From the NCBI GenBank assembly GCA_964035545.1, contig OZ037767.1, forward strand, positions 8,256,581 to 8,320,580: a stretch of DNA of 64,000 nt, read 5' to 3'. Shown in pieces: positions 2,997-53,294 of the stretch (positions are counted from its first letter, which is position 1; every line of letters begins with the position of its first letter). The translations under genes were made by a program, and so were the position numbers. The notes under the pieces were generated by a model. The model was not told the origin of the DNA. It made no database searches and saw only the letters and a list, made by a program, of their open reading frames with translations. Source of the stretch: Bugula neritina. Lineage: Eukaryota > Animalia > Bryozoa.

Positions 2997-4206
2997 TCAC
3001 TTCTTCGCCAGCCGTTTCTCTAGTCGGGTCTGCAACTTAGCCAGCTCGGTGGCCGCTCGCTTCTGTTCCTTACTGAGGCGGGCCATACGCCGTTGCACTT
3101 TCCTAATGTCAGTTAGTAGGGACTGGTCAGGGTCGCTGTCATCTCGGGGTGTGTTGCTAGCACCCCTCCTCTTCTTGTGGGTGTGTCGGGGCACATAGGA
3201 GATCATCGTCGTTGGGGGTTGTGAGTCCTTAGTTACAGCGCGTCCAGTACGGGTTACTATGACGCGTAGAGGTCGAGTGGTTACGTCTGGAGGGTAGGTT
3301 GTCGTTGTCTCAGAGGGTTGGGGGTCTGCATCAGAGTCACTCTCTACTGTAGGTCGGGTAGCGGGGAAGTGGTCTAGGAGAGTCTGTCGTCGGTCTGGGT
3401 CGGTCACGTGAGGTAGTATCAGATCCCTGAACTCAGTGTAGGAGTCCGCGTCAACTTCATATAAGTGTCCAATGTAGCAGTCTCGAGTCCGTTGATGCCG
3501 TAGTATAGTGTCCCTGCAGAAGTGGTGGACTCCGCAGGGACAGAAAGTCACAGTAAAATGTTGGGGGACATGTATTTTAAGTCTCTTGGTAGTGGATAGT
3601 GTTCGTCTACACTCAGTACATTGTCTATTATCGTCTGACCCTACTAGTGCTTGAATCAGCGTACGAGTCCGTCGAGTCGTCCAGTTAGTCCGTTTGAGTG
3701 AGGCTTGTGGCAGTGCTAAAATATTGTCATTGGCTACAGTCAAGTCAGTTATGTTCATCTGCATCGCAGTGTGTCGGTCGGTGTTTGTCGGGGAGTCCGT
3801 AAGTGTCGATAAGTGTATGTCGGACAGCATGTCTACCCCTGCTTCTGACATGCTGTCCCAGTTAGTCGTAGGTGTGTCAAGTAATGCCTGTATCTCGTCA
3901 GATACAGGCTCAGTCTCACCTGCAATAGAGTATTTAAATTCATGTATTATTTGAATTACACCCTATGCGTGGGACTCCCGTTCCAAACGATATTGATAAT
4001 CGAGTCTCACAGTCTGTCACTCACTGATCGTATAATCAGCTGAGTCGACCGTCCCACTCTAACTATCAAATATTGTCTGAGGTCAGGAAATTCAACTTTA
4101 TCATTATGACAAAGTGAGACTGCTGTCGCTACCAGAGTAAACTCTAATTAATTATTATAGAATTTCTAGTAGACTTACCCCCCAAAACAGTTGCTGCATT
4201 AGACAT
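2997..4206 (-). CDS. Element A ORF3: zinc-finger + coiled-coil accessory protein; predicted exons 4179-4206 and 2997-3919 (316 aa)
   Basis: 284-aa ORF 2997-3851 with CTEC-x12-H-x3-H and CPC-x12-H-x5-C. Frame stays open to the TTGCAG acceptor at 3920; GTAAGT donor at 4178 follows ATG TCT AAT...GGG G. Confidence 0.8.
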
Positions 4207-9495: not shown

Positions 9496-9531
9496 CTTAC
9501 TCTCTGGCAAGGAGCATTTGTATTAAGTGGG

Positions 9532-10371: not shown

Positions 10372-10423
10372 GTGGTGGCAGCAGTGGGATCTTTCTAGCT
10401 GAGACAATGAAGAGACGGAGAAT

Positions 10424-11182: not shown

Positions 11183-14100
11183 GTGCTACCACTCACCAAC
11201 CGCTTTAGCCAGCTACCGGAGACGGAGCTGGCCGGCGAGGTCTCTCGGGACATCGGAAGGGAACTAAACACCCCTCCGCCGAAGAAGCGGCGCCCGCCTA
11301 CCACCAAACGGACACCACGCCGTTTGACCGAGGCTACGCATGCTGGGGAAGTAAGGTTGCAGCCGCATGGGGAGAGCTACTTCCTGCCCGGGAAGGTAGC
11401 TGGCAAGGCTGTTACATTCTTGCTGGACTCCGGTTGCAACACGAATCTCCTCAGCCGACGAGTCTTCGATGCCCTCCCTGCTCAGGTGAGGAAGGGGTTA
11501 GCTCCCTACACCGGGGAACCTGGCACCCTCGCAGACGGGTCGTGTATCCCTTTCTACGGTGTTGTAGAGCTGCCTGGTCGCGTCCGCGACCAGGCCGTCC
11601 AAGAGACATTTATCCTCAGTCAGCTGGAAGAGGATGCTATCCTGGGGACGCCGTTCTTGAAACGACACCAGTGCCACATGGACTTCCATAAGTCCGCCAT
11701 ACTAATGGCAGGCCGGGAGCTCTCTTGTGTCGACAAGTTTGATCGCCCCCTGGTCGGGGGCGTGCAGGTGGTCCGTAACTGTACGGTACCCGGCCGCTCC
11801 CGGGCGACCACTCACTGCAGAGTGAATGACCGCCAGCTCTCTGGATTAGGGGTTGTCGAAGGAACGCACCCGAGAATCCAACTCGCCAGCAGATTAAATT
11901 GGCTGACTGACCGGGGGAGATCTTGTTGCAGTGCGTCAACCCCTTTTCAGAGTCGGTGACACTACCGTCTGGATCCCTATTGGGCCGTTTCCACACGGTC
12001 CAAGAGGGAGACATAGGACCGTCGCTGGGCGAAGTGACGGAGGGTCGCCAAGAGCGCCCGTCTGTATGGCGGGGGACCGTCCCGGAACACGTCCAAGAAC
12101 TATATGAGTCAGCCTGCGAAGGCTGTGCGGGCAACAAGGAGCGCCAGGCTATGGCCCAGTTGCTGCGCCAGTATGGGGACGTGTTCAGCAGCGGAGACCA
12201 GGACATGGGCTTAACCAAAGCCGTCTGTCACGAGATACCGCTAGCTGCCGGGACTTTGCCTATCCGCCAACCCACCCGGAGACTGGGACCAGTGAAAGAA
12301 AAAGGAGGTCAGCCGACAAGTCCGAGATCTTTGGGACCGCGGCATCATAGAGCCTGCACATAGTGCGTTGAGCTCGCCGGTCGTCCTGGTCCGGAAGAAA
12401 AACAGCAGTTGGCGGTTCTGTGTGGATTACCGCAAACTTAACAGCGTGACCATACAGGACGCCTACCCTCTACCTCGGATCGATGAATCCCTGGACGCCT
12501 TAGCCGGCAGCAAGTACTTCAGTACTTTAGACTTGCTGAGCGGTTACTGGCAAGTCCCCCTCAGTCCCGACGCCCAGGAAAAAGCGGCGTTCATCACCAG
12601 AGACGGGCTGTGGAAGTGGAAGGTACTGCCCTTTGGGTTAACCTCTGCTCCTGCTACCTTCCAGCGGCTCATGGAACAGGTCCTCAGCGGCCTCCACTGG
12701 AAGACGCTGCTCGTCTACCTCGAGGACGTCATCGTGATCTCCCCAGACTTCGCGACCCACGTCAGTCGTCTGAGGGAGGTCTTCGAACGACTCCGAGGTG
12801 CTGGTCTCAAGCTCAAACCTTCCAAATGCGCTCTCTTGCATCCGGAGGTGAAGTACCTAGGGCACGTAGTCGGCCGTGAGGGCTTGGCGACGGACCCTGA
12901 CAAGGTGCGGGCTGTGGCCGACTGGGTCACCCCCCAGGATTTGACCGGACTCCGGGCTTTCCTGGGGCTGGTAGGGTATTATAGACAATACATACCAGAC
13001 TTTGCGGGAGTTGCACAGCCGTTAAATCGGCTCACCGCAAAAGGGGTGGCCTGGCAGTGGACAGCCGTCGAACAGAGGGCATTCGACAGTCTCAAGCGCC
13101 GCTTGCTAGAGGCTCCAATTCTGGCCTACCCAGACCCCGCTCTGGAGTATATCCTTGACACAGACGCCAGTGACCAGAATGTTGGCGCTGTGCTGTCACA
13201 GGTACAAGAGGGCCGGGAAGTAGTCATAGCTTATTACAGCAAATCACTCTCACCTCCAGAGCGCAATTACTGCACCACTCGCAAGGAGTTGCTGGTAGTA
13301 ATCAAGTCAGTGAAACACTTCCGGCCTTATCTCTACGGTAGGCCGTTCCGCTTGCGGACGGACCACGCCTCCTTGATCTGGCTGTGTAAGAGAGCTGAGC
13401 CGTCCAGTCAAGTCGCCCGATGGCTCGAAGTCCTGGCCGAGTTTTCATACCGGATCAAACATCGACCCGGTAGGAAACACGGCAATGCAGACGGGCTGAG
13501 CCGGCGGCCGGACGAGGGGTGTAAACAGTGTCATCATTTTGAGAGAAGGGATGGGGGTCCCCCAAGATCTGAGTTGGTGACACTGGAACACTTTGAGGTG
13601 AGCTACGACTGGGACCAAGGTCGACTCCGACCGAGGGATCCTAATCCACCGGAGGCTGTCAACCATCTCCGCGCCAACCCTGTCTTGGCTCGCAATGTTA
13701 GAGAGCTGCAGAAACTCCAGGAGGACCTCCCTGGGGTAGTAGCTGACATATATCGAGCTAAACGGGAAGGGCGACGACCCAGTGAAGAACAGCTACGGCA
13801 AGGGTGCGCCGAATTACGGCTGTACTGCCAACGCTGGGACTCTCTGCGGATCGGGCCAGACGGTCTACTGACCATCACCTTTGCCACCGACCAGAGTAAC
13901 CATGGTCGAGAAAGGGTGATCTGCCCAGCCGCCATCCGCCGAGAGCTAGTATGGGACACCCACCGACAGGCTCACGCCGGAGCTCAGAGGGTGCTTATCA
14001 AGCTAAGGCTCCGGTGGCATTGGCCCAACATGGAGCGTGACGTCCGCCTAAGGATCAAGCAATGCACAGGATAGTTAAGGGCAACCTTTTAGCTGCAACT

Positions 14101-16411
14101 GCCTTGCTGAGGTTTGCATTGTAATCATATAAGAATTCAGTACCAGTAAAATAAAATCTCAACTAATTGTGCTAGAGTCAAAATTTAAAAACTATGTTAT
14201 AGATCTTCTTTTTCTCCAGTGTAAGTTTTTTGGAAATTTCAATTTTCATTTTTTTTGTGAAGTTATAGACAAAAAACTGCCCAATTTTGGCCAATTTTGC
14301 CTGAAAAGCTGACTTTTCAGTACCAGTAAAATATCTCAGCAGCAAAGCATGATATCTGAATAAAAATTGCACTGCTGGAATCCTGAGATATTTCTCCAGT
14401 GTTATTTTTTTTCTTTTTCCAATAACTCTGCTAGATTGCTCATAAATTGGTGATTTATACACTGAAAATGCCATATTTTCTCATAAGAAACTAGCAGCGC
14501 GCAGAACTTCACGCTTCACTGAGCACGTAGGGATGAGAAGATATTGGCGTCTATATAATAATTACAGACTAGCTAGCTGGCAGGCTATAATAAATAGCTC
14601 GCTTTGTACTTTGTTTATGTAGCACCCATAATGGAATGTTGATATATTACGCAGCCCTAATGAAGATTGGTGCTTATTGGTTGTAGTTTAATCTTAGGCT
14701 AAACAATTACAAGTAGGCAACACGCATGCCACCCGCAGCGCAATATTATTCAAGAACCTGAACTACATTTTGAATGAAATTTATGATATTCTTAGTGAGG
14801 ATGCCCTTAACTATCCTGTGTGCGAAGTCTGCCAGGCCAGCAAGCATGGCCGTCTCCCTAGGGAGGCGGGACGGCGTAGGCTCTATGCTGGCAGGCCTTG
14901 GCAGGTGGTGGCTGTTGACTTGGTCGGACCCATGCCTCTCACCCCCAGAGGAAACAGTTGGATTCTAGTGCTGACTGACCACTTCACTAGGTGGGCAGAC
15001 GCACTGGCTATTCCAGACGCGTCTGCCCCGACAGTGGCCAGCACACTAGACCAGCGTGTATTCTGCTACTTTGGGTTGCCCGAGCAACTACACTCGGACC
15101 AGGGGTCGCAATTTTAGTCCCAACTGATGAGCGACCTCTGCCGCCTCTGGGGTGTAAACCAAAGTAGGACCACTCCATACCACCCTCAAGGTAACGGAGT
15201 GGTCGAACGCAACAACCGGATGCTGGGCGACGCACTCCGCAGTCTATTACTCGGCCGAGGCCAGGAGGAATGGGATCTCGTGTTGCCACAGGTTATGAGG
15301 GCTTATCGCAGCACGCCCCATACCAGCACCGGCGAGACCCCCAACTTCTTCACCCTCGGTCGTGAGACACGGGTGCCCGACCACCTCGCCTATCATACTC
15401 CGGAACCAGAATACTCTGTCCATGAGTACGCTGGGGAAATGATAGAGCGTCTGAGAGTCGCACACGAAATACTGCGAGATAAGCAGTGGCAGGTGCGACA
15501 GGAAGACGCTGATGAACCACCCCTCTACCAGACCGGGGACTGGGTCTGGATGATCAACTACCATAGGCGTCGAGGACAGGCGGCTAAATTACAGCCTAAG
15601 TTTGTAGGACCCTACGTAGTAGTTGAGGTGATGCCCAATCACACTTACAAGTTGGAGCGGTCTGGACAGGTATCTGTCCAGAATGAACCCCGCTTGAAAC
15701 CCTATTGGGCTAGCCCAGGTGCGGCCGGGGGTGCCCCCCCCATTGTTAAAGCCCAGGAGGCAGACAACAATGCGGGGGCGGCGGCGGCGGCATAAACCCA
15801 ATGATGAGTGGGTTATGCCACGGACAGAAGACTTGGCAAGGCAGGAGAGGCCACCTCCCCCAACGGGGCCACACCCTCTGCCTCCAGAGCAAAGCCGTTC
15901 GACCCCAGAGCTACCACCACCACTTCCGGATATAAGTATACTTTCGGAAGTGCAAAACCCCCACACGGGAGGGGCTCCGTCCGGAGAGAACAGAGGGGAA
16001 GAAGGAATAACAGCTGACGGGAGGCAGGAAACACCACCAGTGGAGAATAACAACCCACTGGTGAGTACACCACCTCCCTCACCAGCTACACCACCTTCCC
16101 CGGCGTCTACCACTAGTACATCTCCCCTCCTTGAAAGGGGACAACGTACTAGAAGACCCCCAGCTTATCTTCAAGACTTCGTATGCGACCGCATTACAAG
16201 CGGCAGGTATGAAAGTCCAGCTGGGCGCCGTACGGAAAGACTGGCAGCAAAGCGTGGGAGTTATGAACACCACGTAAAAACCAAGTTTTGCGAAAACGGA
16301 ATAGCGAGTGGAATTACCACTCTCCGGGCATACATTTTCGGTCTCGCACAACAAACACGCTGCCCAGCCTTTTCCTACGCCGACGCGGTCAAGAGTAGAC
16401 GTACTTTCTAA
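11183..16411 (+). pseudogene. pol: Element B pol (frameshifts, YLED in RT, DNA transposon inside integrase)
   Basis: LLDSG, RT, RNase H and IN motifs across ORFs 11183-16411. Confidence 0.95.
14065..14820. mobile_element. Non-autonomous CACTA/EnSpm-like DNA transposon (756 bp)
   Basis: TIR CACAGGATAGTTAAGGGCA, 2-bp TSD TG; removal restores integrase KQCEVC. Confidence 0.9.
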
Positions 16412-16496
16412 TCCATCTGCATCCAAGCTTGAACGTCGAGTATGAGTATAAATACCGAGTTCCCAGGTAAGCTTGCTTAGATCTAACACTCCACTA

Positions 16497-17591
16497 ATGG
16501 AAGTAGATCTCACCTCAGTCAACTCTGATTTAATCGATCTGATTGAATCACAGTTACTGGAGACAGAGTCACACGTGAATGACGACGAGAACATAGTAAT
16601 GGCGGATGATCTACTAGATCTGGAGCTTGATAATATGTCTCTCAGTCAGTTTACACGTTCTGACACAGTCTCTCGAGTGCCGTATAAAAAGATGCATGAC
16701 TCTCAGACTAATAACAGTCGATTGTCATCAGAATTATGCTGTAAAGATCAAACTCGATCTAACAATAATTCTGCTCTTTTAGACGCCACTCGCTCTCCTG
16801 ACTACGGAGATATGCCACCATTAGAAATGGCCTGGAATAGTGAGACACCTCCTACCTCCCTACCAGACGTGCTACTTCAGCAACATAGCTGGGTCGCACC
16901 AGAGACAGAAAAGCTGATTCAACTACACCGCGGCCATGACGAATGCACCACCTGCAGGCTGTGTCAGCAGTACTTCTCCACCCATCGCCGTTTGCGCGTC
17001 CACGTACCGCAGCACTTCCTAACTACTCTCTGTCCCTGTGGTGAATATAGTTACCACAGGGACTACATTCTCAGACATCAGCGTACTATGGACTGCCATG
17101 TGGGACACTTGTACGATGTGGACAAATACAACTTCCCCACCTTTCTCAATCTGATCAAACCTTTCATTAAGGATCTCCCCCGCTTTGAACGGCTCAAACA
17201 CGGATTCCCCTCACCTCGCATCATCACTCATGGACCGTGTCCAAGACCTCCCAGACATAAGAAACCTACCAAGCCATCTCACTCTCCTCCCGCACAGACC
17301 ATACCTCGTCCCTCCACCCTACCTCAAGTTCTACTTCACCGAGTTGAGATACCCCAAAAACGACGTTCCCCTTCCCCACTCCTATGCAGCCTTCTTCTAA
17401 ACGGCGATGGAGACCCTCCTCCCCGAAACGGCAGCCTCCTACAGCCCGCAACATAAAAGAAGTCGAGCTCCGTATGTATGAATTAGAAGCTGAGATTCAA
17501 CGGCTGACCCCCCAGAGTTGCTGCAGCCACTTCCGAAATGAAGACCCTTAAAGCTTCCGTGGCCCTCCTCAAACGGGGCGATCAAGACTGA
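16497..17591 (+). CDS. Element B ORF3 zinc-finger protein (frameshifts before and within the C-terminal coiled coil)
   Basis: ORF 16473-17456: acidic N-terminus, CRLC-x12-H-x3-H, CPC-x12-H-x5-C, Pro-rich region; heptad tail ELRMYELEAEIQRL in another frame. Confidence 0.8.
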
Positions 17592-17928: not shown

Positions 17929-18205
17929 TGTAATGGGGCGTGGTTTACGCCTCGCGCGTATCCCCCTGCCAATCAGTGTGTGATTGGCAACTATTGGATG
18001 AAGCCAAGCAGGACAATTTATTAGTTAGTTAGCGTATACTTGCTGTGATGTAAAGTAGTAATTGTGCTAATACTTATAGAGATTTTTACGTCATATTTTA
18101 CAGTTTTATAATAAAGTCTTACACACGAAAACATCAGTGAATTGCTTGTGACTAGATGCAGATTGCTCACTAGAAGCCCACACAAACATTGTGCTTCGCA
18201 CAACA
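17929..18205 (+). repeat. Element B 3' LTR (277 bp)
   Basis: Follows the PPT, TG..CA, followed by the TSD. Confidence 0.9.
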
Positions 18206-19145: not shown

Positions 19146-19483
19146 TGTTATGATTTTCAGATTTAGGGTTGATATGCAATCCAGAGAGTCTATTTATTTG
19201 CTAGAGAACTTCACCAGGATAAGTCGAGTGAATACGAGTATATTTACACACAAGAATACATCACAAAAACTATACAAATGCATTCAGCAAACTGTACATC
19301 TATACCATTCAGCACTCTATCTTCGACTAACTAGCAGCGGGAAAACTAACTACTGCTACTAACTATCAGTGTCGCTAATTGGCTGTCCATTTTTCCGGGT
19401 CAATTACGTGACCCCATGCTGTAGTAGTGGGGGAAAATAACATTTCCCCATATTATGTACTGGTAGCTTCACGAGCCACCACA
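19146..19483 (-). repeat. Element C 3' LTR
   Basis: Direct repeat of 26473-26811. Confidence 0.93.
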
Positions 19484-19575: not shown

Positions 19576-19679
<104 letters not shown>

Positions 19680-19867
19680 TGCACAATAACAGACATAGTC
19701 ATTATAACAGCATGTCACATACATTTGGCTAGCTATAGAGAGAGAATACCGGCTAGTTGTAGTATTGGACAAGAGGTCGAACTGTCGAGCTGTCAAGCAT
19801 TTACATGATAGTCTTGGGCCTCCAAGAGGGTGAGGCTTGCGGATCATTCCGGGCAGAAGAACCAGGG

Positions 19868-20942
19868 TCAGTGTTTGGCAAGCCGATGTTTGGCCTGGCG
19901 GGCACGTAGCTTCCTTTTAATCCGGCCAACCGAGCCCTTTAACTGATAAAGTCCCGTTGTAGTACTAAGCAGATCCAGTGCTAACTGGGTGAACTCAGCC
20001 TGCAGCCGGAGGAGACGCTCCTCTACAGTGGCCAGGCGAGCGGGGTCTGGGGACGGCGTCCGCCTTCGACGAGGGGGGAACCTGGAAATTGGGTCCGCCT
20101 TCTAGTCGGAGGTGAGGAGACTTCTTCTCCTTCAGGATAGACAAACTCTTCGGGGGTATACACAATCTGAGGGCGGTCGGAGACCAACGGGGATTGTTGC
20201 CTGGCATAGTATAATACATGTTGAAAACCCGAAGTCAGGACGGCCAACAGCATTGCCTTCTTTACTAAGGGTCGTATCAGAGTCAGGAATTCTGGGTAGA
20301 GTTTAGCATCTACCACGTAATTCTCTCCGAAGAAACAGCCCACCCCCCCGGTGTCTAGTGACGGGATAGGGGTAGACATCATTGTATCCGCAGGGACAGA
20401 ATGTGAGTAAGAGGTGGGCGTTGACATGTAGCTTCAGGGAGCGAAGAGAGGCACACTCTTCGTTACCAATCTGGCACCATGTCCTTCCTTTGGGTCCCTA
20501 GGCTGTTTCTATCTGCTCCTTCGTTTCCGGCGACACCCACCGCCAGCGGCGGCGCAGTGGCTCAGGCCGGTCACCATTGGTGTACTCCTTGTGATGCGGA
20601 ACGGGAGGTGCTCTATCCCATACCCTGGTTGTAACGGGTCGAGTGTAACCTGAAAGAGTTTTAACAGCGTTAGTATAATACACTGCAGTGTTGTCGGCTT
20701 AGACAGCCTGGCAACTTCTCGTTCAGTTAACACTCGTAGAGATTTGTGGTAGTGAATAGTTGGATAGAACACATATTACAATGAGATTGTAAAATTTATA
20801 TGTCAAACTGAGTTCCTACCACGGTAGTTCACTAACCTATCTCCAGCTGAATTGACTCAGGTGAGTCGGAGCTGAGTGATGCAATCTAGATTTCATATCA
20901 AGATATAGTTAACTCACCCCACAATCCGTTGTCGTAAGACAT
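19868..20942 (-). pseudogene. Element C ORF3 zinc-finger/coiled-coil protein; predicted exons 20918-20942 and 19868-20649; disrupted
   Basis: WVSPETKEQI, LKLHVNAH..FCPCG, YVVDAKLYPEFLTLIRP, heptad tail; GTGAGT donor, TACTAAC branch point, CTTTCAG acceptor. Confidence 0.78.
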
Positions 20943-20966: not shown

Positions 20967-23900
20967 CTATTGACTAGGAACACGTCTGCTCTTGACTGCA
21001 TCAGCATAAGAAAAGATCGAGCAACGTGGTTGGGGTGCGTGACTAAGACTTTGCGCACCCGACGAATGAATTTTGTTTCTAAATCTGCCGATACAAAAGT
21101 TGATATTTCCGTGGTGTTGACAACTCCCACAATTGCTCGATACTTTTCCCGTATGGTTCCCCGCTAGACTTTCATACACGCCGCTTTTAATGCAGTCACA
21201 TACGAAGTCCTTTAAGTATGATGGGGGTTACCTCGTACGTTGTCCCCGCTCTAGGGGAGGTGACGCACTTGCCGGTGTACTAGTAGAGGCCTCTGGTGAC
21301 GTCTCCACTTCACCGTTAGTGGTCACTTCTTCCTGCTCTCCAGATAGAGCCCCTCCCTCCGTGGGGATTTGCACATCCGGAACCGGCTCGGTCTCTGGAA
21401 GTGTTGGAATCAGACTTGGCGTAGGCGGTGGCGGACGCGCTTCTGTAGGCAAAAGCGGTCACTCATCTCTCACCAAGTCTTCTTCCGGCGGAATGACCAT
21501 GTCATATTCAGGTCCATGCCGCCGTCGCCCACGCGTTGTCGTCTGCCTCCTGGGCTCCAACAACGGGGGGGGGGCTTCTCCCACTGCGTCGGGGCTAGCC
21601 CAATACGGCTTCAAGCGAGCCTCATTCTGGATAGACACCTGTCCTGAGCGCTCGATCTTGTAGGTGTGGTTGGGCATAGCCTCGACTATCACGTAGGGTC
21701 CCACGAACTTAGGCTGTAACTTAGCCGCCTGCCCGCGACGCCTACGGTAATTGACCATCCACACCCGATCTCCCGTCTGGTAGAGGGGTGGTTCCTCGGA
21801 ACCTTCGTGTCGCACCTTCCACTGCTGTTCTCGCAGTATTTCGTGTGCGACCTTCATCCGTTCCACTAGTTCGCTGGCATACTCGTGAACCTAGTTGTCT
21901 TGCTCTAGAACATGGTAGGTAAGATGGTCAGGGAACCGAGTCTCTCTTTCGAGCATCAAGAGGTTTGGGGTATCACCAGTATTGGTGTGTGGGGTGCTAC
22001 GGTATGCGCGCATGATTTGCGGCAATACCGTGTCCCATTCCTCCTGACTGCGTCCGAGGAGGAGACTCCGGAGCGCATCACCTAACATACGGTTATTGCG
22101 CTCCACCACCCCGTTACCTTGGGGATGGTAAGGGGTGGTCCTGCTCTGATTTACTCCCCAGAGGCGGCAAAGGTCGCTCATCAGTTGGGACTGAAACTGA
22201 GCGCCTTGATCAGAGTGTATCTGTTCGGGGAGACCGAAATAACAGAATACATGTTGGTCTAGTGCCCTGGCCACTGTCGGGGGGACGCATCTGGGATAGC
22301 CAGAGCATCTGCCCACCTCGTAAAGTGGTCGGCCAATACTAAGATCCAACTATTGCCTCTGGGGGTCAGGGGCATGGGTCCGACCAGGTCAACAGCTACT
22401 ACTTGCCACGGCCTTCCAGCATATAGCCTCCGCCGTCCCGCTTCACCAGGGAGACGGCCATGCTTACTGGCCTGGCAGATTTCACACTGTTTTACCCTGA
22501 GCCGGACATCTCGCCCCATTTTGGGCCAATACAACCGGAGTTGTAATTTAGAGATCACTCTCTTGACCCCTGCGTGGGCCTGTTTGTGAGCGTCCCAGAT
22601 TAACTCACGGCGTATGGCACTGGGGCAGACCACCCTCTTCCTCTTCGGGTGTCGGCCGTTGGCAGCTAGAGAAATGGTCAGCAGACCATCCTGCCCGATC
22701 CTCAGCAAGTTCCAACGCTGGTAGACCAGCCGGAACTCGACGCATCTCTGCCGTATGCGTTCCTCCCTGGGTCGTCGCCGTTCCTTTTTGGCTCGATATA
22801 TGTCTGCCACTACTCCAGGCAGCTCTTCCTGGAGCTTCTTCAGCTCCCGGACATTATCGGCCAATACAGGATTGGCGCGGAGCTTTTGCACAACCTCCGG
22901 GTACTTGTCAACCTCCTGCCTGAGTTGACCCTGGTCCCAGTCAAACTGTGCTCCGTGGTGAGCCAGTGTCTCCAATTCACATCGTGGGGGACCTCCGTCC
23001 CTCCTCTCGATGTTGAGACACTGTTTGCAACCTCCATCGGGTTGGCGGCTCAAACCATCCGCATTGCTGTGTCTCTTGCCCGGTCGATGTTCGATCCGGT
23101 ATGAGAACTCAGCTAGGATTTCGAGCCACTGGGCGACCTGACTGGAGGGTTCTGCTCTCTTGCACAACCAGATCAGCGAGGCATGGTCTGTACGCAACCG
23201 GAATTTCCTGCCGTATAGGTATGGTCTAAAGTGCTTCACTGACTTGATTACTGCCAACAGCTCCTTGCGGTTAGTGCAGTAATTTCGTTCAGTGGGGGAG
23301 AGAGACTTGCTGTAGTAGGCTACTACTACCTTTCAGCCTTCCTGCACTTGAGACAGCACAGCACCAACATTCTGGTCACTGGCGTCAGTGTCGAGGATGT
23401 ACTCCAGAGTAGGATCTGGGTAGGCCAAGATAGGTGCCGTCAGTAGGCAACCTTTGAGGCGGTTGAACGCTCCTTGTTTGACCGGGGTCCACTGCCACGT
23501 CACTCCCTTTGCGGTGAGCCGGTTTAACGGCTGTGCTATGCCCGCAAAGTCCGGTATGTATTGTCTGTAATACCCTACCAGCCCCAAAAAGCCCGAAGTC
23601 CGGTCAAGTCTTGGGGGGGTGACCCAGTCTTCTATCGCCCGTACCTTTTCGGGATCCGTTGCCACGCCGTTTCGATCGACAACGTGCCCCAGGTACTTGA
23701 CCTCCGGCTGCAATAGAGTGCACTTGGAAGGTTTGAGCTTCAGAATGGCACCTCGGAGTCTCTCGAAAACCTCCCGCAGACGACTGATATGTGTCTCGAA
23801 GTCTGGGGAGATCACGATGACATCATCGAGGTAGATCAGCAGTGTCTTCCAATGGAGCCCGCTGAGGACTTGCTCCATCAGCCTCTGGAAGGTGGCTGGG

Positions 23901-25546: not shown

Positions 25547-26439
25547 CCCGAAGTTAGGAAGGGACAGTACATGCGGAAGTGTCCTTGATTTCCGCATTCC
25601 CAGCAAAAACTGACCGTTTCCCCCGGTGGCGGCGCCGGTGGCCGTACTGGCTCAGAGGCGGTACCTACTGGGGTTTGGGGTGTCAGTGTTGCTATCAGTT
25701 TGGCCAGCATGTCGGTCAGTTGAGTGACTTTCAATGCAGCCGTTAACTGGGCCACGGCAGCCGTTGCGGAGGGTTCCGCCTCTCGCTCCGCTGCCGTGTT
25801 CGCGCGGTCCACCTCCACTTGATGGGAGTTCCCGCGATTTTTATGCATCTGGTTTGCCAGGAGATAAGCTTCCCCCTCCGCCAGAGCATCTTCAACGGTG
25901 GTGACTCCCCTAGCTAGAAACTGGTGGTGGAGACCCAGATCGTTGACAGATTGTATAAAGACGTCAAGGGTATACTTCTCACGGTTAGTTTGGGGCAAAT
26001 CGCTGTACGCGATCTGTGCCAGCTTCATGATCGTGGCGGCATGTTCCTGTAGCGGGGTGTAAAGATCACGCTGCAGCATCTGTAGTCGGGCCCGGGCATC
26101 TGTATCAGAGATGCCGAAGCGGGCCCGCAGAGAAGCAAAGATACTATCGATGTCTGCGCCTAGGCCATAGGGCTTGGCTTTGTCCATCAATGACATTCTG
26201 AGCTTCAGCAGGGCTACGCTAGGGGGCCACTGGGCGACGTCCATTACGTCGCTAAATTCTTGGATGAATTGCTCCACCTCTTCTTCGCCCGTGAAGGTGG
26301 GCGCTTTTAACTGGTAGCGGTCCTCAGTCAGTTCTCGCGGAACCCTTCACTCTTCTACCACATGATTCACAGGCATAGCATCGTCTCTACGCTCACCTTC
26401 TGCTGCCGGTGGTTGCATTCCAGCGTTTTCAGTCTCCAT
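25495..26439 (-). pseudogene. gag: Element C gag (CCHC knuckle CWECGNQGHFRMYC)
   Basis: ORF 25495-26277 plus a disrupted N-terminus. Confidence 0.88.
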
Positions 26440-26472
26440 CTTGGATGTGCACTATCCCACTGCTGCCACCAC

Positions 26473-26811
26473 TGTTATGATTTTCAGATTTAGGGTTGAT
26501 ATGCTATCCAGAGAGTCTATTTATTTGCTAGAGAACTTCACCAGGATAAGTCGAGTGAATACGAGTATATTTACACACAAGAATACATCACAAAAATTAT
26601 ACAAATACATTCAGCAAACTGTACATCTATATCATTCAGCACTCTATCTTTGACTAACTAGCAGCGGGAAAACTAACTACTGCTACTAACTATCAGTGTC
26701 GCTAAATGGCTGTCCATTGTTCCGGGTCAATTACGTGACCCCATGCTGTAGTAGTGGGGGAAAATAACATTTCCCCATATTACGTTGCTAGTAGCTCCAC
26801 GAGCCACCACA
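26473..26811 (-). repeat. Element C 5' LTR
   Basis: Direct repeat of 19146-19483, adjacent to the PBS. Confidence 0.93.
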
Positions 26812-28528: not shown

Positions 28529-28936
28529 TGTGGTAGATTTTAGTGGTGCAAGTATTATTGTATTAATCGAAAAGGTTCACTTCATATTGTTTATTATCTT
28601 GTGAGTTCGACACTGTCGGAGTGCAGCTATGGACAGCAGTGGCACCACTAGTAACCACCAATCAAGACAGTCACACTAATTGATAGCAGGTGGAGCTAGC
28701 TACTCGTAGTTGCAGTGCGCTGAGTAGCTAGCTGGCAGAGCAGCTTGGGACTTCATTTAGAACAGTTGTGTATTAAAGCTCACTAATTATGTAATCGTTT
28801 TCTATTCATGCTAGCAGTAAATAACCTTCTTGTATTTGTGTAAATAATAAAGTATCTTATCGTAAACAACCTGTCGCAGTGGCTTTGTTTAAGTAGACCC
28901 ACACATAATAATAGTGAACTGGCAAAATTCACTACA
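28529..28936 (+). repeat. Element D 5' LTR
   Basis: Direct repeat of 35691-36098. Confidence 0.95.
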
Positions 28937-28991
28937 CTGGTGGCAGCGGTGGGATTCCACTTAATACAAATGCCCCTAGCCAGGGAGTAAA

Positions 28992-34395: not shown

Positions 34396-35690
34396 GTTGC
34401 CTACCCCAGTGGTGTGACACAAAACACCACCGGGGGTAAGAAATGAGCGAAGTCAGCTCGCTAGTGAAAGGGGTATTATACAATCACTTTCACTGCGGAA
34501 AGCGTTCTTTTCTGATTCAACTGCCAACGTGCACGCATGTACTTGGCAGGCTGGCGCACTACGTAGTCTAAGTGGGCAGCAGACTAAAGTCAGGGCTGTC
34601 TTATGGTAAGTCTACTAGTATAATTCTATTATTTAAGTAGAATTCAAGCTGGTAGCCTAAATCAGTCTCGCTTTATCATAACGATAAAGTTGATTTCCCA
34701 AGTCAGGTGATTCACTGACGACTTGAGTGGGGCGGTCAACCACATGATTAATTATTAATCAGTGGTTAGTGATTGCGAGACTCAGTCGAGGTGTCGTACT
34801 GACAGGTGCAAACCCCTTCAACAGTTGTTGGCATTCTGTTGCAGGTGAGACTGGAATGGCGGGGCCAAATTCCTTCTCATGGCATAGCGCAGTCACATCA
34901 TTCATCTCAACTTTTGGCTAGATGCTGGCTGCTTGACTGGACTCTTGTAGCGACATGACAGCAGTGCTGATGGCTGTCATAACAGAAGTGCCAGAGACAA
35001 CTGGCACGTAGCTCCTTCCTCCCCTCCTCTGGCGATCACGTTCCGGTATAGGCAGAGTAGTTCTTCCCTCTTCTCTCCTGTGGCTACATCCTAATAAGAA
35101 GAAGAAGTAATATTAAAGAGTTCTGCATGAAGTTAAAAAGTAAAAATAGAAGTTAAGAAGAAGAAGTAATATTAAAGATTCCTGCATGAAGTTAAAAATA
35201 GAAGTTAAGAAGAAGAAGTCTTCACTTTCCTCCTTTTGGGAATTCGACGGCGACAAGGTAGACGTTGGTAGTGAAGAGACCAGTCAACCCCCCTCCATCT
35301 CCCCCCCTTTGGGGAGATTTCTTCGTACTCTCCAACCCCCCTTTCCTTCTCTCCCCCCTTTGGGAGAGACTCCTTTGCCACGCTTGATTCTTCTGGGGAC
35401 TTCTCGACCCCCATCGCTTGGCTTCGACTAGACGAGTGTGAAGCAGTACATCCCCTTCTCACTAAGTTCATGCTACCCTATATCATTTGGTGAGAGACCC
35501 CCCCACCTACCCTGTGACTGACCCGGATCGATCGTGTACAACATGGACATCGTTTTGAATACATATTTTGTGTTTCTCTCATTCCTGGTTGTTTTGATCT
35601 TTTTGTTTTATTTTACCTTTATTCCTTTTATTATTTTTTTGAAATTATGTGCATCAATCGTAGAGTGTACTTTTCGATAGGTGTGGCGAG

Positions 35691-38813: not shown

Positions 38814-39888
38814 TCAGTCTTGATCACCTCGCTTGAGTAAAGCCACAGAGGCTTTGAGAGTTTTGAGTTCCGAGGCGGCGGCAGCTACCCTAGGAGTTAG
38901 TCGTTGAACCTCGGCCTCCAGGTCATATATGCATAGCTCAACTTCTTTTAAGTTACGAGCGGTGGGAGCATGCCGTTTTGGAGAGGACGAATGCCAGCGG
39001 CGTTTAGTAGAAGGTAGTGCAGGAACGAGAGAGGGGGAGCGTCGTTTTCTAGGTACTTCGACTCTCTGAAGAAGGACTCTTGGTAGGGTAGTGGGTCAAG
39101 GTACAGTTTGTGCTGGAGGAGAGTGGGGTGGCTTTGCAGATTTCCTGTATCTGGGGGGTTTCGGGCACGGTCCATGGGTGATGAGGCGAGGGGATGGGAA
39201 CCCCTGTTTCAATCGCTCAAAACGGGGGAGATCTTTGATGAAGGGTTTTATTAAATTGAGGAAGGTGGGAAAGTTATACTGATCCACGTCATACAGGTGT
39301 CCCACGTGGCATTCCATGGTGCGTTGGTGTCTGAGGATGCAGTCCCTGTGGTAACTGAATTCACCACAAGGACAGAGGGTGGTTAGGAAATGTTGTGGTA
39401 CATGGACGCGCAAACGGTGATGTGTAGAGAAGTGCTGTTGACACAGCCTGCAGGTGGTGCAATCGTCATGGCCGCGGTGTATCTGGATCTGTTCTTTGGT
39501 TTCTTGTGCAACCCAACTATGTCGTTGGAGTAGTACATCTGGCAGGAAGGTGGGAGGTGTTTCGTCGTTCCAAGCTAGCTCTAGTGGTGGCATGTCTTCG
39601 TAGTTGGGAGAGCGAGTGGCGTCTAAAAGAGCAGAATTATTGTTAGATCGAAATTGATCTTTACAGCATAATTCTGATGACAATCGACTGTTACTAGTCT
39701 GAGAGTCATACATCTTTTTATACGGCACTCGAGAGACTGTGTCAGAACGTGTAAACTGACTGAGAGACATAGTATCAAGCTCCAAATCTAGTAGATCGTC
39801 CGCCATTACTATGTCCTCGTCGTCATTCACGTGTGACTCTGTCTCCAGTAACTGTGTAAGAGTTGACTGAGGTGAGATCTATTTCCAT
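38814..39888 (-). pseudogene. Element E ORF3 zinc-finger/coiled-coil protein (disrupted)
   Basis: ORF 39096-39830 closely matches B ORF3; tail ELCIYDLEAEVQRLTPRVAAAASELKTLKASVALLK. Confidence 0.8.
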
Positions 39889-39929
39889 TAGTGGAGGTGT
39901 TAGATCTAGGAGGAACCCGGTATTTGTAC

Positions 39930-42900
39930 TCATACTTGACGTTCAAGCTTGGATGTGGGTGGATTAAAACCACGTCTACCCTTGACTGCGTCAGCGTAGG
40001 AAAAGGCTGGACAGCGTGTTTGTCGTGCGAGACCGGAACTGTGTGCCCGGGGAGTGGTAATTCCACTTGCTATTCCGTTTTCGCAAAACTTGGTTTTTTC
40101 CGTGGTGTTCATAACTCCCACGCTTTGCTGCCAGTCTTTCCGTACGGCGCCCAGCTAGACTCTCATGCCTGCCGCTTGTAACGTGGTCGCATACGAAGTC
40201 TTGGAGATAAGCTGGGGGTCATCTAGTACGTTGTCCCCTTTCAAGAGGGGAAGATGTACTAGTGGTAAACGCCGGGGACGGTAAAGGGTTTGTTGTAGGG
40301 TATGGAGTTGTGGCCGGGGAAGGTGGGGTAGCTGGTGAGGGAGGTGGTGTACTCACCAGTGGGTTGTTACACTCTACTGGTGGTGTTTCCTGCCTCCCGT
40401 CGGCTGTCATCCCCTCTTCCCGTTTTGCACTTCCGGAAGTATATTTAGTTCCCGAAGTGGTGGTGGTAGCCTTGGGGCCGGACGGCTTGGCGCTGGGGGC
40501 AGAGGGCGCGTCCCCGTTGGAAGGGGTGGCCTCTCTTGCCTTGCCAAGTCTTCTGTCCGCGGCATGACCCACTCATCATTGGGTTTATGCCGCCGCCGCC
40601 CGCGCATTGTTGTCTGCCTCCTGGGCTCTAACAATGGAGGGCACCCCCCGCCGCACCTGGGCTAGCCCAATAGGGTTTCAAGCGGGCTTCATTCTGGACA
40701 GATATCTGTCCAGACCGCTCCAGCTTGTAAGTATGATTGGGCATCGCCTCAACTACTACGTAGGGTCTCACAAACTTAGGCTGTAGTTTAGCCGCCTGTC
40801 CCCGGCGCCTACGGTAGTTGATCATCCATACCCAGTCCTCAGTCTGGTAGAGGGATGGCTCATCAGCGTCTTCCTGTCGCACCTGCCACTGCTTCTCCCG
40901 CAGTATTTCGTGTGCGACTCTCAGACGCTCTATCAATTCCCCAGCGTACTCGTGGACAGAGTAGTCTGGCTCCGGAGTATGATAGGTGAGGTGGTCGGGC
41001 ACGCGCGTCTCACGACCGAGTGTCAAGAGGTTGGGGGTCTCGCCAGTGCTAGTATGTGGCGTGCTGCGGTAGGCCCGCAAGACCTGTGGTAATACAAGAT
41101 CCCATCTCTCCTGGCCTCGGCCGAGTAGTAGACTGCGGAGTGCATCGCCCAGCATCCGGTTGTTGCGTTCGACCACTCCGTTGCCCTGAGGGTGGTATGG
41201 AGTGGTCCTACTTTGGTTTACTCCCCAGAGGCGACAGAGGTCGCTCATCAGTTGGGACTGGAATTGCGACCCCTGATCCGAGTGTAGTTGTTCGGGCAGC
41301 CCAAAGTAGCAGAACACACGCTGGTCTAGTACGCTGGCCACTGTCGGGGCAGACGCATCCGGGATGGCCAGAGCGTCGGCCCACCTAGTGAAGTGGTCGG
41401 TCAGCACTAGGATCAAACTGTTTCCTCTGGGGGTAATGGGCATGGGTCCGACCAAGTCAACAGCTACCACCTGCCGTGGCCTACCAGCATATAGCCTACG
41501 TCATCCCGCTTCTCCAGGGGGATGGCCATGCTTGCTGGCCTGGCAGATTTCGCATTGCTTGATTCTTAGTCGGACGTCACGTTCCATGTTGGGCCAATAC
41601 CACCGGAGCCTTAGCTTGGTAAGCACTCTCCGGACTCCGGCGTGAGCCTGCCGGTGAGTGTCCCATACTAGCTCCCGGCGTATGGCGGCTGGGCAGATCA
41701 CCCTTTCTTGTCCAGGGTGTCCCTGGTCGGCGGCCAAGGTGATGGTCAGCAGGCCATCTGGCCCAATCCGCAGAGAGTCTCAGCGTTGGCAGTATAGCCG
41801 TAATTCGGCGCACCCCTGCCGCAGCTGTTCTTCGCTGGGTCGTTGCCCCTCCCGTTTAGCTCGATATATGTCGGCTACCACCCCAGGGAGGCCCTCCTGG
41901 AGTTTCTGCAGCTCCCTGACATTACGAGCTAAGACAGGGTTGGCTCGGAGGTTGTTGACAGCCTCCGGTGGGTTGGGAACCCTTGGTTTGAGCTGACCTT
42001 GGTCCCAGTCGTAGCTTACTTCAGGGTGGTCCAGTGTCGCCAACTCGGATCTTGGGGAACCCCCGTCCCTTCTCTCGATGTTGCAACACTGTTTACACCC
42101 CTCGTCCGGCCGCCGACTCAGTCCGTCCGCATTGCCGTGTTTCCTACCGGGTTGATGTCCGATCCGGTATGAAAACTCGGCCAGGACTTCGAGCCATTGA
42201 GCGACTTGGCTGGACGGTTCAGCTCTCTTACACAGCCAAATCAAGGAGGCGTGGTCCCTCTGCAAGCGGAACGGCCTACCGTAAAGATAAGGCCGGAAGT
42301 GTTTCACTGACTTGATTACTGCCAATAACTCCTTGCGGGTAGTGCAGTAATTTTGCGCGGGGGGGGTGAGAGCGATTTACTATAGTAAGCTATGACTACT
42401 TCACGGCCCTCTTGCACTTGCGACAGCACAGTGCCAACGTTCTGGTCACTGGCGTCCGTGTCAAGAACGTATTCCAGAGCGGGGTCTGGGTAGGCCAGAA
42501 TCGGAGCCTTTAGTAAGCGGCTCTTGAGACTGTCGAACGCCCTTTGTTCGACGGATGTCCACTGCCAGGTCACCCCCTTTGCGGTGAGCCGATTTAACGG
42601 CTGATCGACCCCCGCAAAGTCTGGTATGTATTGTCTATAATACCCCACCAGCCCCAGGAAGGCCCGGAGTTCGGTCAAATCCTGGGGGATGACCCAGTCG
42701 GCTACAGCTCGCACCTTGTCGGGGTCCGTCGCCACGCCATTATGGCCGACCACGTGCCCCAGGTACTTCACCTCCGGCTGCAAGAGAGCGCATTTGGAAG
42801 GTTTGAGCTTGAGACCGGCACCTCGGAGTCGCTCGAAGACCTCCCGCAGACGACTGACATGGGTCGTGAAGTCTGGGGAGATCACGATGACATCATCGAG

Positions 42901-49881: not shown

Positions 49882-51868
49882 AAGAAGATCCAACTTGCAA
49901 ACAGTTTCAATTAGCTGGTCCTGCAAATTAAACATCTTGGTGCAAAGCTTTCTCCAATACCAAAAATAATTACTGTACTACCAGGAAAGAACTCCTGGCA
50001 GTAATCAAAGGAGTCAAACACTTTTGGCCCTATCTGTATGGGAAGATGTTTTGGCTATGGACGGATCATGATTTATTGATATGGCTGTGTAAGAGAGCTA
50101 AGCCCTCTAGTCAGGTTGCACGATGGCTCAAAGTCTTGGCCGAGTGCTCCTACCAAATAGAAGAGGCATGTGAATGCAAACGGGCTAAGCTGGCGTCCTG
50201 AAGAATGGTGCAAACAGTGGCAGAATATTGAGTAGAAAGATGGGGCCCCTACGCTCCAGCATTGAGGCACAGTTTTTGATCGCCGGGCAGTTACGACTGG
50301 CTTTCCTATGGGTATCGTAAACGCTCTCTGAGCTAACACAGTCGTGGCTAAAATGTCCGCAAATTACACAAATCCCAAGAGACACTACCTGGTGTGGTGG
50401 CCGACATATACAAAGCGGAGAAATATGGGAGGCTACCGAGCGAGGAAGAGCAGTGGCAGAAGTGCACTAAATTTCAGCTATTTTTTCTCTACTGGGACTC
50501 ACTCTGAGTTGATATGGTGCACTCACAGGTAGGCTCATGCAAGAGTGTAAGGAGTAGTCAAAAAGTTACAACTTCAGTGGTACTGGCCAGGTATGGGGCG
50601 TGATGGGTGGCTCAAGGTGAGACAATGCAAAATCTGCCAGGACAGCAAACATAGCCGCCCCTGGAAGCAATGGGACAGAAATGGCTGTACACTGGGAGGC
50701 CTTTGCAGCTGGTACCTGTCGACTTAGTAGGCCCATGTCTTAGTTTCTCAGAGGGAACAACGGAATACTGGTGCTCAAGGATTATTAAGTATGCTGACGC
50801 CTTGGCTATCCCAAACACATCGGCTCCTACAGTGGCCCAGGCCCTGAACCAGCAAATGTTCTGTTACTTCGGCTTGACGGAGCAGATACAGACGGTGCCC
50901 AATTCCAGTATCAGCTTTTGAGTGACCTCTGTCGACTCTGGGAGATGACAGAGCAGTACCACCCCGTATCACCCACAAGGCAATAGAGTTGTTAAATGTG
51001 ACAACTGCGTACTGGGTGAAGCTTTCCAGAGTCTGCTCTTCGGCCAAAGTCAGAAAAAAAGAAATGCACTGCTGCGGCAGAATATGTGCGCATACCTCAG
51101 GACGCCTCACTTCAGCACTTCTAAAGCTCTCAACTTTCTGATGCTAGATCGAAAGACCTGAGTACCAGACCACTTGACCTATTATGTTCTGACCCCAGAA
51201 AGCTCAGTCTACAAGTGTGCGGGAGAGCTGATAGAGTGCATAAGAGTCGCACATGAAATCTTCAATAGAAGCAATAGCAGGTGCATAGCGAAGACTCCAA
51301 GGAGCCTCTACTCTGCCAGGTGAGGGCCTGTGTCTGAATTACCAGTCACCGTAAGTGCCGCAGACAGTTGGCTAAGTGACAGCCCAAGTTTGAGGGCCCC
51401 TACTGTGTGACTGAAGCGCCACCCAATCATACGTACAAGATAGAATGTGATAAAAAGGTCTCAATCAAAATTGAGGCTTGCTTGAAATTGCATTAAGCTA
51501 GTCAAGATACAGTGGGTTAAGCACCCAATTTACTAGAGTCTAGGAGGTAGCCAGCAGATATCGGCAAGTAAGGCAGGGCTCCAAGTACAAAATAGTTGCA
51601 CCGAAGCCGTATTGCAGAGTCAGAGAACCCGGACCTCCTCCACCGGCTGCAGAGAAACTGGTTCCCACTGACCAGATTTTCACACGACCATCACCTGAGC
51701 CATTACTCTCAGCAAACACGCTGACCAGCCTAGCTTTTTACATGCAACATTTCTCAGAACATGACGCTCGCAGTCAGTTGATAATTTACTTGCTTCCAAT
51801 TTTTCAAGCATGGCGTCAAGTGCTACTATTGAGGGTAGGTGACCTATAGAACAAGTATTCCTTCTAAT

Positions 51869-53294
51869 ATGGAAACTGATTTAGTTTTGGTACAGTCTGA
51901 CTTGATCAATCAGATTGAGTTGGATTTAGCCTAGGGCCACACGGCGCGTATTTTCGCATGCGAAAATTGAAATCACAAGTAGCAAAGGTGTCCACTGTAG
52001 CATCAGTGATGCATGATAAATAAAGCGTCCATTTTTAAATCGCACTCGCTTTCAATAAAACGCAATTTACTGGAATGTAGCACTAAAATAAAAAAATTGG
52101 GCTCGCTGAATAACTACCAGCCAATTATGTGACGACGACAGAAACGATTCGCACTTGCGTTGAAAATGCAGAGCGACAAGTGCGAACGTTTTCTCAACGC
52201 GCACAGTGGACACCTTTGCTACTTGTGATTTCAATTTTCGCATGCGAAAATACGCACCGTGTGGCCCTAGGCTTACTGGGCACTACGACAGTCGTTGATG
52301 ACAATGAGGATTTTGATATGACGGACGATCTTCTAGATTGAGATCTTGAGTCAATAACTTTCAGTCGGCCTGGGCAGCTGCCAATATTCCCTTCAGTACC
52401 ATACAAAGGGGTAGGTGATTTTCAGACAGACAAAGGTCTGGAATCACAAAAATTAAATGCTAAAGATCCTAGTATGAGATTTATTTCTAATTCTACTCTT
52501 GTAGATGTTACTTGGCTTACCACGACATGTGCTCCTCTCTCTCCAGAGATTGAATAGAATGATTATCTAAGCTCTCAGGTCCCACCTCCGATCTTCAAAG
52601 ATGACAGCTCCGACTGTCCACTAAGACTAGTGTCAATCAAACCACTCCTCCAGTTTGACTGAATTTAATCAGCTACTCACATTCAAATTAGTGATATGCT
52701 AAGTGAATCTGACAATGGGGTATGTGACCTGTGTCGGCAGGAGTTTACAACAAATAAAAAGCTAGCTCAAGGTCTAGGTCCCACAGCACTTCATAACAGC
52801 TTTCAGCCCCTGTAGAGAATTTAGCTATAACAAAGACTGTTCTATGGCACCAAAGAACCATGAAGTGCAACATTGGGCACTTTTTTCAGGTGGATGCCCC
52901 CTCCCTTCCCAAATTCTTCAACATCATCCACCATGTGATGCAAGATAGAAGCTAACTTGCTCGACTCCTCATAGGCTTCCCTCTCTTCGCCTGACATTGG
53001 CTGCACAAGTCTGAAGACCGGACACCCGTCTCTACAAGCTGTCATCAGTCGTGTGGATGCCGACAGTGACGTGGTTCGTTTCACATCTAACCAGTCTTTT
53101 CCAAGATCAAGTAACAAAAAGATGCTATTAGGTCTCTTCCTTTCCAGCCCCTGGAGCAGCATGTCTGGAAGCTGGAACATTCACTAAATCAAATCACACC
53201 ACAGCTACTAGCAGCCACTAGTGAGCTCTTCGGTCTTGAAGATGCCCTGATGCGGCAAAAAAGGAAAGGCCAGCAGTTCAAGTAAATCCAGTGA
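51869..53294 (+). pseudogene. Element F ORF3 remnant
   Basis: METDLVLVQSDLINQIE..DDNEDFDMTDDLLD; CDLCRQEF..VPQHF..PC..HQRTMKCNIGH at ~52720-52890. Confidence 0.75.
51929..52272. mobile_element. PIF/Harbinger-like MITE
   Basis: ~70-bp TIR starting GCCTAGGGCCACACGG, 3-bp TSD TTA; removal restores the ORF3 frame. Confidence 0.88.

Follow-up and report, generated by a model that had tools for sequence, protein, structure and literature searches.

The DNA analyzed here is a 64,000-nucleotide (nt) stretch of the bryozoan Bugula neritina genome (contig OZ037767.1 of assembly GCA_964035545.1, positions 8,256,581 to 8,320,580 of the forward strand; hereafter the window), which carries several long terminal repeat (LTR) retrotransposons with a third open reading frame (ORF), ORF3, downstream of pol. 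An interval of one of them, positions 20650-20917 of copy C, together with its counterparts in copies A, D, B and H, appears to be one inherited spliceosomal GT-AG intron that is ancestral to the element families, a reading to which we give a probability of about 0.7 on the basis of the comparisons below. The intron most likely divides a start-codon mini-exon from the body of ORF3, an accessory gene with zinc-finger motifs.

The window holds a cluster of nested Ty3/gypsy LTR retrotransposons, seen as blocks of 48-58% GC inside AT-rich DNA of 30-37% GC. The copies belong to four families, namely A/D, C, B/E and the 5'-truncated H (Table 1). Copy C is closer to B/E, with a pol nucleotide identity of 72-84%, and the integrase regions of A and H share 41-54% protein identity. 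In copy A, gag is followed by protease, reverse transcriptase, RNase H and integrase, with Pfam matches to RVT_1, RNase H (RT_RNaseH), Integrase_H2C2 and rve; the aspartyl protease is matched by two Pfam families with scores near the cut-offs, and zf-CCHC in gag is a weak knuckle match below the Pfam cut-off (16.5 vs. 20.8 bits). A primer-binding site (PBS), TGGTGGCAGCRGTGGGAT, which we take to be the complement of the 3' end of an animal-type tRNA-Leu(AAG), stands next to the 5' LTR in all five full copies. Stops or frameshifts are found somewhere in every copy.

An earlier note on this DNA, made from the letters alone, had described the intron in copy C, and its ATG, 25-nt exon, donor, TACTAAC motif, acceptor and 268-nt length are all correct, in agreement with re-derivation by script. 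Its coordinates for copy A (28-nt exon, GTAAGT, 259-nt intron, TTGCAG) are likewise exact, and exon 2 of A is open to 2997. Unspliced, the C mini-exon frame ends after 14 codons, and the mini-exon holds the only ATG able to open the ORF3 frame, because the read-through contains a TAA. The in-frame join to a zinc-finger ORF proposed in the note stands; the ORF is not intact, and its zinc-finger identity comes from homology only. The C region 20719-19871 is covered by an intact relative, P0033, in a tblastn comparison.

The note had seen the same architecture in two distinct families. It proves to be wider: a mini-exon, a donor and an in-phase YAG acceptor occur in A, C, B and H, with a mini-exon of 25 nt (C, B and H) or 28 nt (A) that always ends in phase 1. 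The position is conserved even between families diverged as far as A and H. Since the ORF3s are homologous and alignment places mini-exon, donor and acceptor at corresponding positions, we read the recurrence as one inherited intron and not as convergence. The mini-exon peptides are unrelated (MSNAATVLG, MSYDNGLW, MSINTEFP and MASSATIE), all four having an A at -3, phase 1 and a final G, and without splicing each of the four ATGs opens merely 10-20 codons. Splice sites were expected by the note to be conserved among other copies, and in a six-copy alignment the donors of five fall in one column: GTAAGT in A and D, GTGAGT in C, GTAAGC in B and GTAGGT in H. Branch-point-like motifs are TACTAAC (C), ATCTAAC (B and E), TTCTAAT (H) and TACTGAC (D), and A is without a clear match. 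B and C agree in CTAAC-N17-AG (19 nt with the AG included), and their second exons are identical over the six bases from +5 to +10. The interval has a GC content of 37-41% vs. 44-56% in its flanks.

Three further copies had been said to lack the intron, which is not what we find. Copy B has a 25-nt first exon, GTAAGC, ATCTAAC and an in-phase TTTTAG. Copy E has indeed lost its donor, in an 11-nt gap relative to B, and keeps the mini-exon ATG, ATCTAAC (39648-39642) and the acceptor AG (39624-39623). The copy at 49.9-53 kb (H), possibly the third one meant, carries mini-exon, donor and acceptor. Copy D retains both sites as described, with GTAAGT at 34606 and TTGCAG ending at 34844. The note was also right that the introns of A and C do not look alike: their alignment score of 19 is at the level of shuffled sequences (18.6 +/- 2.4), i.e. 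they are unalignable. Homology between the C intron and the B interval is marginal (score 24 vs. 18.7 +/- 2.2, reached by 13 of 300 shuffles), and no further copy of the A or C intron was found in the window at >= 88% identity.

Position and phase of the splice sites exceed what chance would give. Of the GT-AG pairs that precede ORF3, only 2 of 712 in A and 2 of 640 in C have both a GTRAG donor and a YAG acceptor and give an in-frame join opened by an ATG; of the two in A, it is the proposed one that is matched by P0013, a metagenome-derived relative. This protein starts with MSNAATVL, the first eight residues of the A mini-exon peptide, and continues with ES-ETEAVSAEIQALLDTP, where the conceptual spliced product of A has GG-ETEPVSDEIQALLDTP, with no difference in spacing and with a split codon compatible with xGT. 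Because gene callers do not splice, the contig of P0013 must hold exon 1 abutting exon 2. On this protein-level comparison, P0013 is a cDNA or a processed intron-less copy, with the intron in either case removed exactly at the predicted sites. It belongs within the A-type group. The earlier note had suggested a search for precisely intron-less genomic copies, and P0013 shows that an intron-less form exists among metagenome-derived proteins.

Other relatives, all of them from metagenome-derived collections (31 close to A, 3 to C and 47 to B/E), bear on the acceptor. Eight A-type sequences read through it (A itself, P0007, P0010, P0024, P0100, P0129, P0085 and P0086), and all eight have [AV]G/E at the boundary (stroke); similarity begins exactly there, and upstream only pyrimidine-rich codons are common. 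The C-type relatives P0033 and P0034 (73-80% identity) read YYTNAVETLSG/YTRPV and YCTNTVETFSD/YTRPA across the same boundary, which fits the residues expected if TACTAAC and TTTCAG are kept, and their first Met past the acceptor comes only beyond both zinc motifs. No confirmed locus was obtained for DNA-level relatives in metagenome, viral or genome contig collections, and a two-motif intron pattern gave 0 matches in metagenome contigs, so the comparative evidence beyond the window is at the protein level only.

Several observations weigh against an intron at this position. The motif model GTRAGT..TACTAAC..YAG is at chance, with 1 occurrence seen against a mean of 1.39 in 200 window shuffles. 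The joined form is a single protein, one of the four that reach the junction among the 31 A-type matches, it is seen in none of the 3 C-type or 47 B/E-type matches, and the P0013 copy has a C-terminal frameshift. Copy C is itself dead, its ORF3 having one in-frame stop and a frameshift, and the conservation of TACTAAC and the acceptor in its relatives is read at the residue level from translations, not from DNA. An internal Met, 23 codons past the acceptor, is retained by the majority of A-type relatives (P0024 and P0100 are without it), and in P0033 the intron itself includes an in-frame Met, so that translation without splicing is possible. The B/E interval equals the coding core in conservation, and its splice signals might be relics.

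One possible explanation is that nothing is spliced: an internal ATG would serve for translation of ORF3, and the GT...AG pairs would be conserved for another reason or by chance. The internal Met of A-type relatives, the chance-level motif test and the B/E proteins that begin within the interval (see below) speak for this. Against it stand the joined form P0013, the C-type ORF3s without a Met before the zinc motifs, P0024 and P0100 without the internal Met, the 21 codons from the acceptor to the internal Met that are conserved as protein (e.g. QALLDTPT) and the recurrence of the donor at the same column in five of six copies, and we consider it very unlikely.

The intron reading takes a particular form in B/E. 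The B interval is also open in the ORF3 frame from an ATG at 16497 (MEVDL...), and 35 of the 47 B/E-type relatives reach the ORF3 N-terminus, all 35 of them starting at ME.DL inside the interval. Residue conservation among the relatives' proteins is 0.80-0.87 in the interval, 0.74 in the zinc-finger core and 0.65 in the stretch past the acceptor. We infer that the B interval is an intron doubling as coding sequence. In B, E and H, where the interval is conserved coding sequence with an ATG of its own, retention would give a long acidic N-terminus and removal a short one headed by the mini-exon. A B/E ORF3 running continuously from the mini-exon ATG was rejected, since none of the 47 relatives starts there. 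The B mini-exon reads ATGAGTATAAATACC at 16442-16460, which contains a TATA-box-like TATAAATA that is probably a coincidence; E has ACAAATA at this place.

It could also be imagined that the uninterrupted P0013 form is ancestral and that the 240-320-nt segments are later introner-like insertions, or insertions resembling miniature inverted-repeat transposable elements (MITEs), that were tolerated via splicing. That the A and C introns cannot be aligned would agree with this, as would a 342-nt element with inverted ends that did insert into the H interval (51930-52271, MITE-like, each end carrying a long terminal inverted repeat, CCTAGGGCCACACGG). We hold it to be highly improbable: the aligned position and phase are the same in four families whose integrase regions differ by up to ~50%, B and C share CTAAC-N17-AG and the six bases past the AG, neither intron is repeated elsewhere in the window at >= 88% identity, and P0013 sits within the A-type group with A's own mini-exon residues.

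Candidate sites for a separate ORF3 message are also present. Within the spacer from pol to ORF3, conservation is highest in a CTTTT(C) block, of which CTTTT is invariant in all six copies, with a CAG 4-31 nt downstream in A, C, E and H and ~45 nt downstream in D. If this candidate block served as an acceptor, the mini-exon would become an internal exon with a length of 75 nt in A, 78 nt in C and 61 nt in H. In A, C, B and E a donor-like GTRAG is found 40-95 nt past the PBS; the fifth copy examined, D, has the weaker GTAAAA. It is possible that the ORF3 acceptor is real and is paired mainly with this gag-start donor in a subgenomic message, the mini-exon being skipped or merely an internal exon. 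The donors near the PBS match AG/GTRAG, those of B and C are in phase 1 of gag, which is the phase of the ORF3 acceptor (an agreement of two families that has a chance of ~1 in 9), and in A and C the mini-exon ATG is preceded by the CTTTTC..CAG block at a distance of 46-54 nt. In Tor3a, the env donor likewise lies near the gag start and the acceptor upstream of env (PMC4402516). Nevertheless, P0013 joins the mini-exon to exon 2, and the mini-exon keeps its length and phase in four families despite unrelated peptides, which argues that its ATG is used. Pairing with the gag-start donor is unlikely as a replacement for the mini-exon intron, and would be compatible with it if the message were doubly spliced.

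If the inherited intron is real, splicing would give the ORF3 frame of C-type elements, and probably also that of A-type ones, the one ATG that it can use. The intron would survive retrotransposition if the reverse-transcribed RNA is mostly unspliced; a spliced full-length RNA would retain the PBS and seed intron-less copies, of which P0013 may be one. Persistence of the intron over four families implies a replicating RNA that is unspliced for the most part, or else a distinct RNA as the ORF3 message. Such a message would probably be subgenomic, and could be formed by splicing from the gag-start donor to the CTTTTC..CAG block or by internal initiation. A retrovirus-like regulated splicing of ORF3, as the earlier note had proposed, is a plausible hypothesis, although the internal Met in A-type and the in-intron ATG in B/E/H make a strict splicing gate on ORF3 unlikely in these. 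The ORF3 product would be a nuclear, oligomeric, nucleic-acid-binding regulator.

A bolder scenario, quite unlikely in our view, combines these elements: a doubly spliced message (gag-start donor, 61-78-nt ATG exon, ORF3) would encode a nuclear zinc-finger/coiled-coil regulator, whose RNA target would be the short intron, present in unspliced RNA only and predicted to be strongly folded in A/D, in a loop like that of Rev and the Rev response element or of CERV, and retention in B/E/H would switch between two N-terminal isoforms. If true, a gypsy lineage would run a programme in the style of complex retroviruses. Folding z-scores of the intron are -5.4 and -4.9 for A, -6.1 for D, -2.8 to -3.0 for C and -4.2 for B, and compensatory pairs between the A and D introns make up 10 of 62, in a structure derived from those same two sequences. 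The fold is not specific to the intron: 33 windows across element A average a z-score of -2.5 with a minimum of -5.1. RNA structure was dropped as evidence for the intron, the whole of element A being similarly biased.

ORF3 follows integrase; its protein combines a predicted zinc finger of the C2H2 type with a second Cys/His motif, a basic cluster and, towards the C-terminus, a helix. By sequence comparison, A, B/E, C and H carry homologous ORF3s that form one gene family: A and B share 45% identity over 121 residues (E=3e-35), and the C spliced frame matches B with E=5e-8 when its TAG is read as X, a match that a second C frame continues (E=5e-7). Across 57 members, C100, C103, H116, H120, C126, C128, H141 and C147 (numbering of P0001, the A protein) are invariant or nearly so; the finger spacing tested was C-x2-C-x12-H-x3-H. 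A profile of the family matches the solved C2H2 fingers of Sal-like protein 3 (E=7.5e-6), and Pfam zf-C2H2_4 is weakly matched by 32 of the 57 members (best E 0.00079), P0001 itself matching nothing. AlphaFold2 predicts for P0001 a confident core (blocks 71-190, pLDDT >= 90), with a disordered N-terminal part and, at the C-terminal end, a long helix over residues 263-305. Foldseek gave no match to PDB structures at E <= 0.001, the VIA wide search just single-helix matches to residues 258-306, and the ESM Atlas generic zinc-finger neighbours only. AlphaFold2 and the family scans, neither of them aimed at transmembrane segments, gave no sign of an envelope protein in ORF3. The family is large, with 202 clusters at 50% identity reaching E <= 0.001, again metagenome-derived throughout, and no Pfam family was found for it; a literature search found no paper describing it, which is weak evidence of absence.

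Copy D has lost the mini-exon ATG and the ORF3 body, its similarity to A stopping 9 nt past the acceptor. As its LTRs are 99.3% identical, a copy already devoid of ORF3 inserted not long ago, and in cis the gene is likely dispensable. Unrelated sequence replaces the body at 34845-35690, with two tandem repeat units (~35090-35215) and C-rich runs. A and D are 95-96% identical through gag-pol up to 4476 / 34298 and ~70% identical or unalignable from the integrase end to the LTR, which suggests recombination between their lineages near the ORF3 region.

Table 1 Retrotransposon copies, ORF3 exons and intervals, and candidate upstream splice sites in the window
Feature	Position	Strand	Details
Copy A, LTR pair	2334-2742 / 9551-9959	minus	98.8% identity (window self-comparison)
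Copy B, LTR pair	10145-10371 / 17980-18205	plus	93% identity (window self-comparison)
Copy C, LTR pair	19146-19483 / 26473-26811	minus	96.5% identity (window self-comparison)
Copy D, LTR pair	28529-28936 / 35691-36098	plus	99.3% identity (window self-comparison)
Copy E, LTR pair	38152-38423 / 45352-45623	minus	98.2% identity (window self-comparison)
Copy H, RNase H-integrase part of pol	49938-51568	plus	5'-truncated; fourth family
PBS TGGTGGCAGCRGTGGGAT	A 9532-9549, C 26454-26471, B 10373-10390, D 28938-28955, E 45330-45347		
C mini-exon	20942-20918	minus	25 nt, ATG + 7 codons + 1 nt, MSYDNGLW, phase 1
C candidate intron	20650..20917	minus	268 nt, GTGAGT...TACTAAC (20675-20669)-N17-AG, CTTTCAG ends 20650, 39% GC
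C ORF3 body	19871..20649	minus	in-frame TAG after 48 codons, frameshift
C acceptor-like block (candidate)	20996..21015	minus	CTTTTC...GCAG upstream of mini-exon; predicted
Acceptor-block counterparts (candidate)	A 4254-4262, E 39986-40005, H 51763-51773, B 16369-16388		GG replaces AG in B
C donor-like site (candidate major 5' splice site)	26390..26400	minus	AAG/GTGAGC, 43 nt into gag; predicted
Gag-start donor counterparts (candidate)	A 9492-9503, D 28984-28995, B 10451-10461, E 45259-45269		
A mini-exon	4206-4179	minus	28 nt, MSNAATVLG + 1 nt, phase 1
A candidate intron	3920..4178	minus	259 nt, GTAAGT...TTGCAG (ends 3920), 37% GC
A ORF3 exon 2	2997..3919	minus	intact, P0001, 306 aa
D intron (candidate)	34606..34844	plus	239 nt, GTAAGT...TACTGAC...TTGCAG; A vs. 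D intron score 102, shuffles 18
B mini-exon	16442..16466	plus	25 nt, MSINTEFP, phase 1
B interval	16467..16782	plus	316 nt, GTAAGC, ATCTAAC (16757-16763)-N17-AG, in-phase TTTTAG ends 16782
B ORF3 body past acceptor	16783..17456	plus	
E ORF3 region	39096..39933	minus	mini-exon ATG 39933; out-of-frame deletion
H mini-exon	51810..51834	plus	25 nt, MASSATIE, phase 1
H interval	51835..52504	plus	670 nt, GTAGGT, TTCTAAT, in-phase TTGTAG ending 52504
H ORF3 body	52505..52982	plus	decayed, stop in frame (tblastn)

Further repeats were observed in the window. A long (TA)n microsatellite occupies 19578-19808, between the end of the C ORF3 and the 3' LTR. A ~760-bp repeat occurs three times with 90-94% identity (14060-14820, 37070-37832 and 49122-49882), with a fragment at 46000-46120; one copy sits in the pol of B, another truncates H on its 5' side, and the repeat may be a solo LTR or a non-autonomous element. 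An additional pair of 475-bp LTRs (56660-57134 / 61727-62201), 99.8% identical and with ~4.6 kb between them, encloses a 456-codon ORF (57409-58779); the whole looks like a young LTR element and is probably non-autonomous. Positions 53381-53453 of the plus strand are tRNA-like, with a GCA (Cys) anticodon loop (Rfam 30.4 bits vs. a gathering threshold of 29); ARAGORN called no tRNA there, and it may be a tRNA pseudogene or the head of a short interspersed nuclear element (SINE).

Reverse transcription of spliced RNA should erase sense-strand introns, and a lineage that keeps one therefore shows a separation of messenger from replicating RNA. Systems of this kind are already known, namely CERV of Cer1, EVADE, Ogre and the env mRNAs. 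The tax/rex messages of human T-lymphotropic virus (HTLV) are comparable in that translation starts on a short internal exon, which contributes a few codons and joins in frame with a regulatory ORF at the 3' end. There is no homology to these genes, and the elements described here are env-less retrotransposons in which the upstream splice is a candidate only. The Ogre intron separates coding parts of gag-pol, and is not known to belong to an accessory gene or to create a start-codon mini-exon. Ogre of legumes is, like the present elements, Ty3/gypsy, with a functional sense-strand intron that persists through retrotransposition (review PMC12786077).

Spliced accessory or subgenomic messages are established for Cer1 (PMC10309623), EVADE (PMC5580714) and Tor (PMC4402516). 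Cer1 is a Ty3/gypsy element of C. elegans, and its CERV, reported to be without homologues outside nematodes (PMC10309623), resembles ORF3 as a gypsy accessory gene in the env slot whose message is spliced, the splice sites being retained in the genomic RNA. The proteins are also alike in a basic cluster resembling a nuclear localisation signal, a leucine-zipper-like helix and the lack of relatives in curated families (PMC10309623). The likeness is one of description. The CERV message has five exons, the first of which overlap gag (PMC10309623), whereas here a private 25-28-nt ATG exon after pol is followed by one short candidate intron and the protein has a predicted C2H2-type finger. EVADE and further Ty1/Copia elements of Arabidopsis that carry the shGAG intron are similar in that a ~300-nt sense-strand intron is kept in an LTR retrotransposon, the full-length RNA retaining it and a spliced subgenomic RNA being translated (PMC5580714). 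However, that intron lies in gag-pol, where splicing is coupled to early termination and gives a gag-only message (PMC5580714), and ours would lie at the 5' end of a third gene, supply its start codon and belong to another superfamily. The env genes of errantiviruses and Tor are likewise downstream of pol and expressed from a spliced or internally initiated message; their introns span gag-pol, and neither a short intron in the downstream gene nor an ATG mini-exon is described there (PMC4402516).

What is specific to the Bugula elements is a start-codon mini-exon of fixed length and phase after pol, with a short candidate intron of the accessory gene conserved in four families. Also specific are one family in which this intron is coding as well and a large ORF3 family, with zinc-finger and coiled-coil features, outside the curated families. 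Because of the conserved position, the fixed-length start exon, one intron-less derivative and one family with a coding intron, these elements offer a compact system in which to study splicing control, intron retention and the origin of Rev-, Tax- or CERV-like accessory genes outside retroviruses.

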